A stretch of DNA of 64,000 bases from a virus (taxonomy: Duplodnaviria > Caudoviricetes): the IMG/VR virus record IMGVR_UViG_3300033463_000010, positions 149,232 through 213,231 of that record. One strand, 5' to 3'. The translations under genes were made by a program, and so were the position numbers. This document shows, piece by piece, positions 12,803-48,920 of this stretch; position 1 is the first letter of the stretch; the number at the start of each line of letters is the position of its first letter. The notes under the pieces were generated by a model, which made no database searches, was not told the DNA's origin, and saw only the letters and a program-made list of their open reading frames with translations.

Positions 12803-13486
12803 TCAAACTCCGATATTCCCGAACAGGTAGAACGGACCTGTAAGTTGTCGGAGGCGTTGGTTCGCCACGTCGTAGTATTCCTTGCACAGTTCGGTCCCGA
12901 TAAACTTTCGGGCTTCCAACACGGCTGCTTCTGCCGTGGTCCCGCTTCCAATGCAGGGGTCAAACACTATATCCCCGTGGTTTGAACTAGCCCGTATGAG
13001 CCGTCTAAACAGGTCCAGGGGCTTTTCCGTCGGGTGACGCTTGCTAGACTCGCAGGGGTGTCGCCATACGGGGGATTGGCAGAACTCATTGAACGTTGCG
13101 TTGGACTTACGCATAAACACGCAGCATTCCACGGACGATAGCCAAAGGTGCTGCCCGTTCATAGGCGAGGGGTTCGTCTTTTCCCAAATACAGAGCCTTG
13201 TAGAAAGCCCCTTGTCAACGCCCGCCTTACGCAGCATAGACACCTGTTCGGTTCCACAGAAAATATAAATGCTCCCCTTACAGATACGGATTACCTCGTC
13301 CATAAACTTGTCAAGCGGGAACGTTAGAACGTCGGCAGCTTCCTTGTTAATGTGACGCAGCCCGCCTTCTTCACGGTCGGAACATTCGTCGTAGGGAATA
13401 TCCGTCAAGACCATATCCACGCAGTTGTCTTCTAGCCTTGCCATATATTCCAGGCAATCCATATTATAGAGTTTGTTCAATTCCAC
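12803..13486 (-). CDS. DNA amino-methyltransferase, beta class (paralog 1)
   Basis: TDIPY, HPTEKP, DPCIGSGTT. Confidence 0.92.
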   Translation of the reverse strand: MELNKLYNMDCLEYMARLEDNCVDMVLTDIPYDECSDREEGGLRHINKEAADVLTFPLDKFMDEVIRICKGSIYIFCGTEQVSMLRKAGVDKGLSTRLCIWEKTNPSPMNGQHLWLSSVECCVFMRKSNATFNEFCQSPVWRHPCESSKRHPTEKPLDLFRRLIRASSNHGDIVFDPCIGSGTTAEAAVLEARKFIGTELCKEYYDVANQRLRQLTGPFYLFGNIGV

Positions 13487-13673
13487 TTTTATACTTTTCC
13501 TTTTCGCTCAAAGTTTCAAGCATAGTAATCGGCAGGGTAGCTAACGCTGCAAGTGCCCAGGACACTTCCTCTTTCGTGATTTCGCCCGACTCAACCATTT
13601 TACGTGCTGCGTCCATAGGGGTGCGTGTTTTCACAACAGCATTCAACTTTTTCCAAAATTGCAGAATATCCAT
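13464..13673 (-). CDS. hypothetical protein
   Basis: AAGGA RBS. Confidence 0.6.
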   Translation of the reverse strand: MDILQFWKKLNAVVKTRTPMDAARKMVESGEITKEEVSWALAALATLPITMLETLSEKEKYKSGIEQTL

Positions 13674-13743
13674 AAATCCTTAAAATAAAAAGTAGCGGGG
13701 CAACACGCCCCACTACTACAAATATAGACAGATAACGACCTTT

Positions 13744-46735: not shown

Positions 46736-46750
46736 AAAAATTTTTTAAAA

Positions 46751-48082
46751 TTATTTACGCAGGGCTGCGTATTCGTCGGGATAGGCTTTCTGTATTGCTT
46801 CTTCGGTAATCGTGTAGGTCTTAATCCCGTCGGCAGCATATACCTCGTTCAAGCGGGTCGCTGCGTCGGGATAAAGTTTCATAAGCACGTCTAGCTTCGT
46901 GTCGGGGTCTTCGCCATAGAGAGTAGCCAACCGCATAACGCCACACTTCATTTGCAGGTCGTAAAGTTCCGCACGGGTGAGTTTCTTCGGCTTCTGTTCT
47001 TTGGGGACGACCACGGCAGTTTCGTCGTGGGAGCCATCAGCAGCGTCAAGATGGACGCTTGACACCTGTTCAGCGGTAATAACGGGCTTGCCCGTTTTTT
47101 CCACGACCTGCTTTGCTTCTTCCACGTTCTCAACCACGGGAAGTTCCTGGGGTTCTGCGGGCTTCACTTCAAGCACGGTATCGTGGTCTTCAAGGAACCC
47201 CACGGATTCGGCAGCGTCCACGGTTTCGGGTTCTGCGGGCTTCGCCTTAATTTGCAGGTCAATGTGGTCCACGGTATTGGTGGCAACCGCTTGAACGTCC
47301 ACAGTAAGCGTCCCGTCTTCGGACAGGTCCTTGATTTCCTTGCTGACAACCTGCATTTCGGGGTGAACCAGGGTGGTTACGGTTTCTGCCGTTTCCAGGA
47401 CGCTTTCCTTGACATCTTCGGGAATGTCTGCGACGCTTGCGGGTTCCTTTGGCGGGTAGTTCTCATAAGACGGTGCCAGGGCTTCCAGGCATTCGGCTTC
47501 GTTCTTGATTAGCCCGCTAGGTATCGGGTCAAGAACGCCCAATGGTTTTTCAGCAGCTTGTGGTTCCCTGTCCACCAACTTGACATTCTTAAAGAAGTTC
47601 AAGGCATCCCCGACCACGCCACGATGCGACATCGGACCAAACAGGTGTTCGGGTTCTTCCTGCGGTTCGGCTATCGGCTGTGCAATCGGTGGACCTGGGG
47701 GAATAGGGGTCTGCACACAGTCGGGACCCGCCAACAGGCAATCGCAGGTGTCCTGTTCCTGTTGGGACGGTTCCACCTTTTCAGCCTGCTTTTCGCAAAC
47801 TTCGTCGTCGGAGCCGAGGACATTGTTCAAGGCTTCCATAAGTTCTTCAAACGTAGTGCCCGTGAACGGCTTATAAAGCACCATAATGTTGGTGAGTTCC
47901 AACATACCGTTATCGGCTTTCTTTTCGTCGTAGCAAAGCCCGAAGACGGGATATTCCCTGTGTTTGACCTTGCTGCCGTCTTCGGCAACCGTGCCCTTAA
48001 CGTCAGCCTTGTAGTTGGCACGGGCAAAGTAGCGAAGGTTTTTGGATTGGTTCTTCGTAATGAGCATAGTCTTAAACTCCAA
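46751..48082 (-). CDS. acidic Pro/Glu-rich hypothetical protein
   Basis: long ORF with low-complexity centre. Confidence 0.7.
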   Translation of the reverse strand: MEFKTMLITKNQSKNLRYFARANYKADVKGTVAEDGSKVKHREYPVFGLCYDEKKADNGMLELTNIMVLYKPFTGTTFEELMEALNNVLGSDDEVCEKQAEKVEPSQQEQDTCDCLLAGPDCVQTPIPPGPPIAQPIAEPQEEPEHLFGPMSHRGVVGDALNFFKNVKLVDREPQAAEKPLGVLDPIPSGLIKNEAECLEALAPSYENYPPKEPASVADIPEDVKESVLETAETVTTLVHPEMQVVSKEIKDLSEDGTLTVDVQAVATNTVDHIDLQIKAKPAEPETVDAAESVGFLEDHDTVLEVKPAEPQELPVVENVEEAKQVVEKTGKPVITAEQVSSVHLDAADGSHDETAVVVPKEQKPKKLTRAELYDLQMKCGVMRLATLYGEDPDTKLDVLMKLYPDAATRLNEVYAADGIKTYTITEEAIQKAYPDEYAALRK

Positions 48083-48920
48083 TGTTGCCGTAAATGTAGA
48101 ACGGACCCGTGAGTGCTTTCAAGCGGGCGTTCGCTTTTTCGTAGTAGGTCTTGTCCGTTTCAAAACCTATAAACTTTCGCTTTTCCATAACCGCAGCGAT
48201 AGCGGTTGTCCCGCTACCCATACAGTTGTCCAGGATAACTTCGCCTGGATTCGTGAACGTGCGTATAAGGTATCGGAGCAGTTCAACGGGCTTCTGCGTC
48301 GGGTGCAGGACCGTGGATTCGTGTTCACGCTGAATAGCGATAATGCTTCGGGGCAGCTTCTTACCGTCGGGCACGGTCGCTTCAACACGCTTAACACTGT
48401 CGTAGGTCCTGCCCTCGTAATCACGCCCGAAGTCCTTTTTGGGCGGGTCGCTCAAATTCAAATGTGCCCCGTAGCAGTTGTTGGTCTGCTTATGGGGTCC
48501 GCTTCCACGGGAGTGGTTAAGCGGACCGTCTTCATACTGCGGGTTGTAGGTCGGCAGGGACTTGTAGAACACGGCAATATCTTCGTGGCAACGCATAGGC
48601 ATACGGTTGGCATTGAGAAAGCCCGTCACCCTGCACTTGTCCCATACCAGGTTGTAACGCCACAGCTTTTCGTTTGAGAGCATAAGTTTGGCGGTGAACA
48701 TTCCCTGGCAAAATAACAGGATAGCCCCATTATCCTTGATTACACGTTCATACTGTGCCCACAGCGGTTCAAAAGGAATAATCCTATCCCATTGGGCGTT
48801 CGGGTTATTCTTATGCAGAACTTCGTAGGGCAAGTCACAAATAATAGCGTCAATGCTGCCGTCGGGGATTTCTTTCATACCCTCAAGGCAGTCCATATTG
48901 TAAATTCGGTTTAGGTCCAT
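48072..48920 (-). CDS. DNA amino-methyltransferase, beta class (paralog 4)
   Basis: CDLPY, HPTQKP, DNCMGSGTT. Confidence 0.93.
   Translation of the reverse strand: MDLNRIYNMDCLEGMKEIPDGSIDAIICDLPYEVLHKNNPNAQWDRIIPFEPLWAQYERVIKDNGAILLFCQGMFTAKLMLSNEKLWRYNLVWDKCRVTGFLNANRMPMRCHEDIAVFYKSLPTYNPQYEDGPLNHSRGSGPHKQTNNCYGAHLNLSDPPKKDFGRDYEGRTYDSVKRVEATVPDGKKLPRSIIAIQREHESTVLHPTQKPVELLRYLIRTFTNPGEVILDNCMGSGTTAIAAVMEKRKFIGFETDKTYYEKANARLKALTGPFYIYGNIGV

Follow-up and report, generated by a model that had tools for sequence, protein, structure and literature searches.

The four beta-class DNA methyltransferases encoded in the window, a 64,000-nt stretch of phage DNA, are built from variable cores joined to one constant C-terminal module. 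This module ends in an exposed tail that is conserved at the protein level and restricted to methyltransferases of a single phage group. The tail may serve as a docking peptide, possibly for one of the two divergent sliding clamps of the phage. All four genes are on the minus strand and match PF01555 (N6_N4_Mtase), in agreement with the initial annotation, which had recognized four beta-class paralogs here: M1 (12803..13486; 227 aa from a GTG start, a short DIPY-type enzyme, E 1.2e-26), M2 (19002..19778; 258 aa, DLPY), M3 (19782..20594; 270 aa from ATG, DLPY) and M4 (48072..48920; 282 aa, DLPY). An alternative, longer M3 ORF with a GTG start reaches into the polymerase gene, up to position 20657.

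The PF01555 matches range from 94.5 to 111.7 bits (E 1e-26 to 7e-32; curated cut-off 26.7), and the domain stops about 18 residues short of the C-terminus. Common to the four proteins are a start of the form M[DE]LN[KR][IL]YN.DCL, the catalytic D[LI]PY, HPT[QE]KP and, at the C-terminus, RL..LTGPF[YC][IL][YF]GNIG[VI], with the permuted motif order of the beta class (D[LI]PY at residues 29-32, C[MI]GSGTT about 50 residues before the end). The initial annotation correctly placed their variation ahead of HPT[QE]KP, as most differences lie between DxPY and HPTxKP. Its remark that D[LI]PY replaces DPPY holds for all four; this is not unusual, however, but the norm in the respective subfamilies (DLPY in 117 of 120 M4 homologues, DIPY in 116 of 120 M1 homologues). 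The family-invariant residues are retained in M1-M4, so that all are predicted enzymes with the residues required for activity, and M1 orthologs in related phages are 96% identical. An AF2 model of M4 (pLDDT 87) matched the solved folds of M.MboIIA, M.BceJIV, CcrM and M.RsrI in Foldseek (probability 1.00, E 1e-16 to 1e-18). The solved beta-class enzymes, M1.HpyAVI included, resemble the phage proteins in fold, in permuted motif order and in matches over the catalytic and AdoMet motifs, but identity is only about 22% and none of them has the tail. CcrM carries an 80-residue C-terminal domain.

The tail comprises 13 residues, encoded at 12806..12844 in M1 (LTGPFYLFGNIGV), 19005..19043 in M2 (LTGPFYIYGNIGI), 19785..19823 in M3 (LTGPFCIYGNIGV) and 48075..48113 in M4 (LTGPFYIYGNIGV), all on the minus strand, and has the form LTGPFx[IL][YF]G[ND][IL]G across the phage group. 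It had been proposed to lie beyond the catalytic fold, which is borne out by the end of the PF01555 domain, by sequence matches to solved homologues that stop before it (at M4 residues 262-273) and by structure prediction. In the M4 model, residues 272-282 form coil (pLDDT about 66-71) after a last helix at 257-271, and in M2 (mean pLDDT 75) residues 251-258 are still coil, with pLDDT <50, when the model is based on an alignment of 28 tailed sequences. The models thus depict the tail as an exposed, unpacked peptide outside the catalytic fold. Six of its residues (T, G, P, F, G, G) are invariant in 25 distinct genes, with two to four synonymous codons in use at each position and six codons for the leading leucine. 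Since the invariant residues are encoded by varying synonymous codons, codon usage points to purifying selection on the tail at the protein level.

In the whole 213,231-bp genome, only these four ORFs possess the tail ending; a tail profile (HMM), a motif scan and a C-terminus scan of the phage proteins revealed no other carrier, polymerase, primase and recombinase included. A 337-aa ORF with the tail-like ending TPFNSVLFAEVEEE was considered and dropped, being without family match and poorly conserved or split in relatives. The initial annotation had raised the possibility that bacterial enzymes of this subfamily have the tail as a generic part, and had suggested searching for it in other proteins and phages. 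A search of 185,579 species genomes recovered it from a single contig, which is phage-like and a relative of this phage, and 33 of 34 metagenome matches are methyltransferases. This distribution, together with the different endings of same-fold relatives, rules out a generic bacterial feature. Viral and metagenome collections contain two to seven tailed methyltransferases per phage, and in three related phage genomes the tail is present on four of four PF01555 genes, on seven of seven, and on two plus one short GPFRMF variant.

The two parts of the tailed enzymes have different histories. In a tree of the catalytic and target-recognition region (N-part), the tail label changes at least nine times and monophyly of tailed sequences is rejected (AU test, p=0.001), whereas the tree of the C-part (59 columns before the tail) requires two label changes and a single origin is not rejected (p=0.67). 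Because the N-part rejects a single origin while the C-part does not, the trees identify the tailed enzymes as chimeras that combine cores of several beta-class subfamilies (DLPY, DIPY, DPPY, SPPY) with one C-terminal module. The tail never occurs apart from this module of about 45 residues, whose signature (..RKFIGFE..Y..AN.RL[RK].) is complete in 27 of 31 tailed and in none of 263 untailed sequences. Residues 16-225 of M4 are 80-100% identical to untailed proteins, and from residue 226 on M4 is nearer to M2 and M3. For M2, the nearest N-part relative is an untailed protein (P0121), and compared with its positional ortholog in the close relative L007, nucleotide identity is 62-83% in the flanks and 37-45% at nt 271-540, so the centre of this ortholog has been swapped while the flanks are conserved. 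The diversity of the paralogs had been attributed to recombination between conserved flanks. This explanation is supported as old module shuffling, by the AU tests, the break in M4 and the M2 ortholog, but not as ongoing exchange: paralog flanks are only 55-82% identical at the DNA level with many synonymous differences, which also rules out recent gene conversion among the paralogs, and inverted repeats are absent. Conserved flanks with exchangeable target-recognition regions are likewise known from multispecific C5 enzymes of Bacillus phages, Type III mod alleles and Type I hsdS. Unlike these systems, the phage joins whole cores (catalytic plus target-recognition region) to one module with a private tail and shows no sign of ongoing switching.

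The methyltransferase genes sit within the replication module. M3 and M2 are in tandem with 3 bp between them, directly downstream of a family A DNA polymerase whose N-terminal region is UDG-like (20596..23280, minus strand; PF00476, E 1.9e-38). This adjacency of polymerase and methyltransferase is kept in the relatives G001 and G002, and the polymerase is 94%, 87% and 76% identical in G005, G001 and G002. On the same strand are a clamp loader (17357..18301; phrog_5846, E 1e-53; PF13177) and two DnaN-like clamps. Clamp 1 (23401..24498; 365 aa) is very divergent (phrog_947, E 3.7e-16; PF02768, 29.6 bits), had no match among PDB sequences and is 91%, 81%, 79% and 40% identical in tail-bearing phages. 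The divergent clamp 2 (31147..32256; 369 aa; phrog_947, E 3.5e-20) has weak matches to PDB beta-clamps (E 2e-5) and identities of 79%, 63% and 27% in relatives. A promoter-like motif, CGCTA-N5-CTATAT, is located just upstream of M4 (48928..48943, minus strand) and, with one mismatch each, upstream of the polymerase-M3-M2 gene string (23320..23335, minus strand) and of a 69-aa ORF followed by M1 (13722..13737, minus strand). It occurs 12 times in the window against 0.31 expected matches, and the genes for gp32, clamp 1, DnaB and the polymerase likewise have it upstream. No restriction enzyme or nuclease domain adjoins the methyltransferases, whose neighbours are replication genes or genes without a Pfam match, and no methyltransferase pseudogene remnants were found elsewhere in the phage genome. 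Judged by this gene content, M1-M4 are orphan methyltransferases, for which a role in anti-restriction is plausible.

We tentatively favour, at somewhat less than even probability, a reading that unites these observations. Cores from different methyltransferase lineages are joined near AdoMet motif I to a clade-specific C-terminal module; their several specificities would together protect phage DNA against host restriction, and the tail would be a docking motif common to all methyltransferases of the phage group. The most likely partner would be the phage replisome, namely one of the two DnaN-like clamps, so that methylation would proceed along with the fork, a scheme also proposed for relatives with a QLxLF-like ending at the tail position. 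Clamp docking fits the data because the tail is unpacked in the models, relatives have QLxLF-type endings at the same position, two DnaN-like clamps are encoded and the genes lie in a replication context. Of 120 close M4 homologues, 105 end in QxxLF, QLxLxL or LF at the tail position; consensus-like endings of untailed M4 relatives include QLKLF, QLTLF, QPTLF and QLSLDL, and the methylase of the cultured Lactococcus phage P1048 ends in QMSLFDEV. By their likeness to the bacterial motif, these endings are themselves only candidate clamp binders.

Known clients of the bacterial beta-clamp with C-terminal QL(S/D)LF or QLxLxL include Pol II, Pol IV, UmuC, Hda and MutS. The phage enzymes resemble them in that a protein acting on DNA terminates in a short hydrophobic peptide, past the last helix and unstructured, but differ in that the phage tails are longer and off-consensus and the candidate phage clamp is very divergent. 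The C-terminal clamp-binding consensus is QL(S/D)LF (PMC9690074), and neither this motif nor QLxLx(L/F) is matched by the tails of M1-M4, consensus-like forms being confined to untailed relatives. Canonical clamp motifs at phage protein termini were limited to QLFMDL at the N-terminus of the primase, which may be chance. This departure from the consensus counts against clamp docking, as does the absence of the tail from the polymerase, where a general clamp-docking code would predict one. Moreover, the tail is nearly constant even between phages in which identity drops to 40% for clamp 1 and 27% for clamp 2, whereas tight coevolution with a clamp would predict otherwise. A private clamp code is conceivable, although we consider it rather unlikely: the two highly divergent phage clamps would refuse bacterial QLxLF, incoming methyltransferases would be refitted at motif I with the adaptor module, and LTGPFxIYGNIG would dock on the phage clamp only, whereby phage DNA would be methylated at the phage fork and host DNA, replicated on the host clamp, would not.

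Docking to something other than a clamp, i.e. another methyltransferase (as homo- or hetero-oligomer), the polymerase, gp32, UvsX or a host protein, is a serious but less than likely alternative. It agrees with a tail that is exposed, under selection and exclusive to methyltransferases. For the polymerase, conservation (76%) far above that of the clamps (40% and 27%) parallels the constancy of the tail, and its adjacency to methyltransferase genes is conserved. Oligomers are conceivable given that the beta-class enzymes CcrM and M.BceJIV, both matched by the M4 fold, are generally known as dimers; however, the dimer interfaces of this class are not known to use the C-terminus. No candidate stands out among these partners, and it is a clamp-motif-like peptide that relatives hold at the equivalent position. 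A partnerless stabilizing or solubility element, inherited along with the C-terminal module, appears improbable. The tail is confined to proteins with the RKFIGFE..AN.RL signature, and because it always accompanies the same module it could serve that module instead of a partner, but it remained unpacked in two AF2 runs, same-fold relatives stop at the helix or have quite different endings, and six invariant residues in 13 positions are strong conservation for a mere cap.

We regard it as still more improbable that the tail is a regulatory tag, either a degron that times methyltransferase activity or a capsid-loading peptide for injection. C-terminal hydrophobic peptides do mark proteins for proteases or load cargo into HK97-fold shells, P1 DarB is packaged in the capsid, and the tail is common to every methyltransferase of the phage; yet the genes are located in the replication module behind a replication-type promoter-like motif, away from structural genes, and no link between the tail and capsid proteins was found. 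Conservation at the DNA level, with the tail codons acting as a recombination site or as ribosome-binding site of the next gene (..GGA GTN TGA contains GGAG), is highly improbable and already largely refuted: the last glycine is GGA in 17 of 25 genes, often followed by G, the M3-M2 gap is short and M4 overlaps at its end with the following ORF, but synonymous variation occurs at every invariant residue, identity among the tails of the paralogs is 72-85% in DNA versus 77-92% in protein, and at best the last two codons would be explained.

In eukaryotes, DNMT1 is tethered to the sliding clamp PCNA and methylation follows replication (PMC9690074). The logic proposed for the phage enzymes is the same, though by analogy only, as DNMT1 belongs to an unrelated class (C5), has an N-terminal PIP box and uses another clamp. 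If the tail is indeed a docking peptide, it would represent a prokaryotic counterpart of this coupling, in which a portable adaptor module makes any incoming beta-class methyltransferase a client of the phage replisome. This would explain how 213 kb of new DNA are methylated fast at multiple motifs to escape restriction, and would provide a new peptide-clamp pair that might operate separately from the host's own clamp and clamp clients. In the literature outside subscription journals, we found nothing explicit on clamp-binding motifs in methyltransferases of bacteria or phages. Should the clamp reading fail, the data still show cleanly that methyltransferases are assembled by joining specificity cores that vary to a module that is constant within the clade, which is useful for phage methylome annotation and engineered specificity swaps.

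The phage itself, from gut or rumen and with a whole record of 213,231 bp, had no near-identical counterpart in the GenBank phage collection (megablast). The sole hint of its host is a syntenic contig that was binned with a Clostridia MAG.

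The four methyltransferase genes on the minus strand, M1 (12803-13486, GTG start, 227 aa), M2 (19002-19778, 258 aa), M3 (19782-20594, 270 aa counted from ATG, as an alternative longer GTG ORF would run into the polymerase gene) and M4 (48072-48920, 282 aa), all matched PF01555 (N6_N4_Mtase) far above the cut-off in a profile search and belong to the beta-class enzymes of this family by every computable criterion. In the alignment they share the same start, D[LI]PY, HPT[QE]KP, C[MI]GSGTT and the ending RL..LTGPF[YC][IL][YF]GNIG[VI], while divergence is concentrated between DxPY and HPTxKP. 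The AF2 model of M4 (pLDDT 87) has M.MboIIA, M.BceJIV, CcrM and M.RsrI as structural matches, which places M1-M4 in the beta class and the variable stretch at the site of the target-recognition region (TRD) of that class. The initial annotation was thus right about the ORFs, their common start, motif and ending, and the differences before HPT[QE]KP, but not about D[LI]PY in place of DPPY as a special feature: DLPY is found in 117 of 120 M4 homologues and DIPY in 116 of 120 M1 homologues, i.e. it is the usual motif of these subfamilies. No nuclease or other restriction-related domain was found in the neighbours of M1-M4, making them orphan enzymes. Orphan phage methyltransferases and TRD shuffling are already known kinds; what is new is a clade-specific adaptor module with a private C-terminal tail (from LTGPF onwards), with which cores of several subfamilies are regularly refitted.

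The tail is not a generic feature of this enzyme family. Close M4 homologues (70-78% identical) are ~15 residues shorter, ending ..RI..E..Q[LP]xLF or QLxLDL; in the M2 search only one of 149 representatives (50% clustering) carried the tail (P0159, ..LTGPFKLYGDIGQPGKMEENP), the remainder having diverse endings; and the 120 M1 homologues comprised 12 with the tail, 13 with QxxLF- or LF-type endings and 95 with others. All 12 tailed M1 homologues end in RL[RK].LTGPF, preceded by a RKF[IM]G motif with at most one changed residue. Looking for the tail in other proteins and phages, as proposed at the outset, placed it on related phages: in IMG/VR a back-translated DNA pattern recovered 22 real tail-bearing ORFs, each of them a methyltransferase, with 2 to 5 on a contig, and methyltransferases made up 33 of 34 matches in 241 million metagenome records. 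A generic part of a bacterial subfamily, which would have undone the initial reading, is contradicted by 185,579 species genomes of bacteria and archaea, where the tail occurred on one 66-kb contig only, which is syntenic with the window phage and was assigned to a Clostridia MAG recovered from the cecum of water buffalo (JAFYKO010000170.1; L039, L040). This binning is the only host hint, and a weak one. Downstream of its M1 ortholog, the same contig has a Cys-rich ORF of 290 aa with no match anywhere in the window by blastn. Every PF01555 gene is tailed in this genome (4/4) and in a 215,686-bp relative (7/7), and a 185,666-bp relative has two with a GDIG tail variant and one with the short ending EFVGPFRMF, which could be an intermediate stage of the tail or a truncation of it. 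The methyltransferase with this short ending (G002, L031:1339-2196; also L001 and L014) is M4-like, has NLPY and AMQKP instead of DLPY and HPTQKP, and may be degenerate. A 337-aa ORF without family match (34563-35576, minus), partial in G001 and TAG-split in G005, ends TPFNSVLFAEVEEE, with a loose likeness to the tail core.

The enzymes are chimeric. Residues 16-225 of M4 are 80-100% identical to the untailed P0007-P0009 and only 3-60% to M2/M3, and past residue 226 M4 is nearer M2/M3 (73-87%) than P0007-P0009 (57-73%). Trees were built by a quick method without a mixture model from 31 tailed and 62 untailed sequences, the groups being fixed by the tail beforehand and the untailed sample coming from searches that used M4, M2 and M1 as their three seeds. 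In the part N-terminal to HPTQKP, tailed enzymes fell in at least nine places and forcing them together cost 292.7 log-likelihood units (AU p=0.001), while from HPTQKP to RL (59 columns, tail left out) two changes suffice and the constrained tree was not rejected (p=0.67). The module signature RKF[IM]G[FT]E plus [AS]NxRL[RK] is present in 27/31 tailed vs 0/263 untailed enzymes, the N-terminal [DEQ]LN[KR][IL][YH] in 26/31 vs 13/263, and tailed cores are of DLPY, DIPY, DPPY and SPPY types. The recombination junction is around motif I. M2 and its positional ortholog in L007, a close relative whose polymerase is 94% identical, have 62-83% DNA identity in the flanks and 37-45% in the centre (nt 271-540), about the level of unrelated DNA, so the TRD has been exchanged. 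Another relative (L003, IMGVR_UViG_3300028832_002542) has two extra tailed methyltransferases (5075-6580), one of DPPY and one of DLPY type, in tandem directly after the M1 ortholog, within a 1.84-kb stretch missing from the window, where M1 is followed by a 559-bp gap without ORF (12244-12802). Recombination between conserved flanks, as initially suggested, thus stands as an evolutionary mechanism given the M4 mosaic, the tree conflict and the L007 swap, but there was no sign of recent exchange within this genome.

The window covers the final 64 kb of one virus record of 213,231 bp, and M1-M4 are located within a replication module with a UvsX-like recombinase (13744-15060), gp32-like SSB (15127-16590), clamp loader (17357-18301), family A polymerase (20596-23280, minus), DnaN-like clamp 1 (23401-24498), DnaB-like helicase (25203-26684), DnaN-like clamp 2 (31147-32256) and primase (32520-33452, minus). 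The two clamps have highly divergent sequences: PDB beta-clamp matches reached only E 2e-5 for clamp 2, and clamp 1 had no PDB sequence match. The promoter-like CGCTA-N5-CTATAT has 12 window matches (<=1 mismatch; 0.31 expected), all on the minus (gene) strand and each 5' of gene starts (e.g. 8625, 12787, 16691, 26709, 48928, 52545, 57216). It precedes M4, the polymerase-M3-M2 string, and a 69-aa ORF with M1, as well as the genes for gp32, clamp 1 and DnaB, which suggests co-expression of the methyltransferases with the replisome.

At the tail position, 105 of 120 close M4 homologues have QxxLF, QLxLxL or LF, endings that only some 10% of the wider family show and that are therefore accessory too. 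The C-terminal beta-clamp-binding consensus is QL(S/D)LF, and eukaryotic DNMT1 binds PCNA (PMC9690074); the methylase of a cultured Lactococcus phage has QMSLFDEV at its C-terminus. In this phage group with its own two divergent clamps, the private peptide might fill the position of the QLxLF-like endings and tether all methyltransferases of the phage to one shared partner, for which a phage clamp is the likeliest candidate. Docking on a clamp is our tentative reading, favoured by the clamp-motif-like endings at the equivalent position. Against it, the tail lies outside the binding consensus and differs from canonical clamp clients in the motif itself, so we can only claim that it may work like one; it was not found on the polymerase or any other protein of this phage; and it is almost constant in a phage with clamps 40% and 27% identical and polymerase 76%, polymerase identity in relatives (76-94%) being far above that of the clamps. 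Another partner, or oligomerisation, is somewhat less likely. As first proposed, the tail lies beyond the catalytic fold: PF01555 ends ~18 residues short of the C-terminus in M1-M4, and the tail follows the final helix (M4 residues 257-271) as a modelled coil (pLDDT 66-71), with pLDDT below 50 in M2 despite an alignment of tailed sequences only. No solved homologue reaches this region. We consider a purely structural role improbable, and a degron or packaging tag still more doubtful. A DNA-level signal is very hard to sustain, as the residues T, G, P, F, G and G never change across the 25 different tailed genes despite 2-4 synonymous codons for each, six codons are in use for the leading L, and tail DNA identity among M1-M4 is 72-85%, which argues for constraint on the peptide, not the DNA.

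The polymerase has a UDG-superfamily region below threshold (residues 42-180), and the primase begins MVDWKQLFMDL, in which QLFMDL matches the hexapeptide clamp-binding pattern QLxLxL, maybe by chance; the clamp-binding hexapeptide of Hda is likewise N-terminal. A tRNA gene (17272-17344, minus, 69.8 bits) lies between the clamp loader and a 162-aa ORF. In a SNF2-type helicase (26719-28941, minus), a sub-threshold PF14890 intein-splicing match (residues 260-299, 28.4 bits vs cut-off 35.8) immediately precedes the helicase domain. A pyrimidine-dimer DNA glycosylase (30000-30380, minus) matches PF03013 (E 5e-10), the T4 endonuclease V family, and is part of the replication module. Finally, a 443-aa acidic protein without family match (46751-48082, minus) starts within or just past the M4 tail codons, so both genes may be translationally coupled, and its homologue on the Clostridia MAG contig (L040) likewise follows the M4 ortholog.
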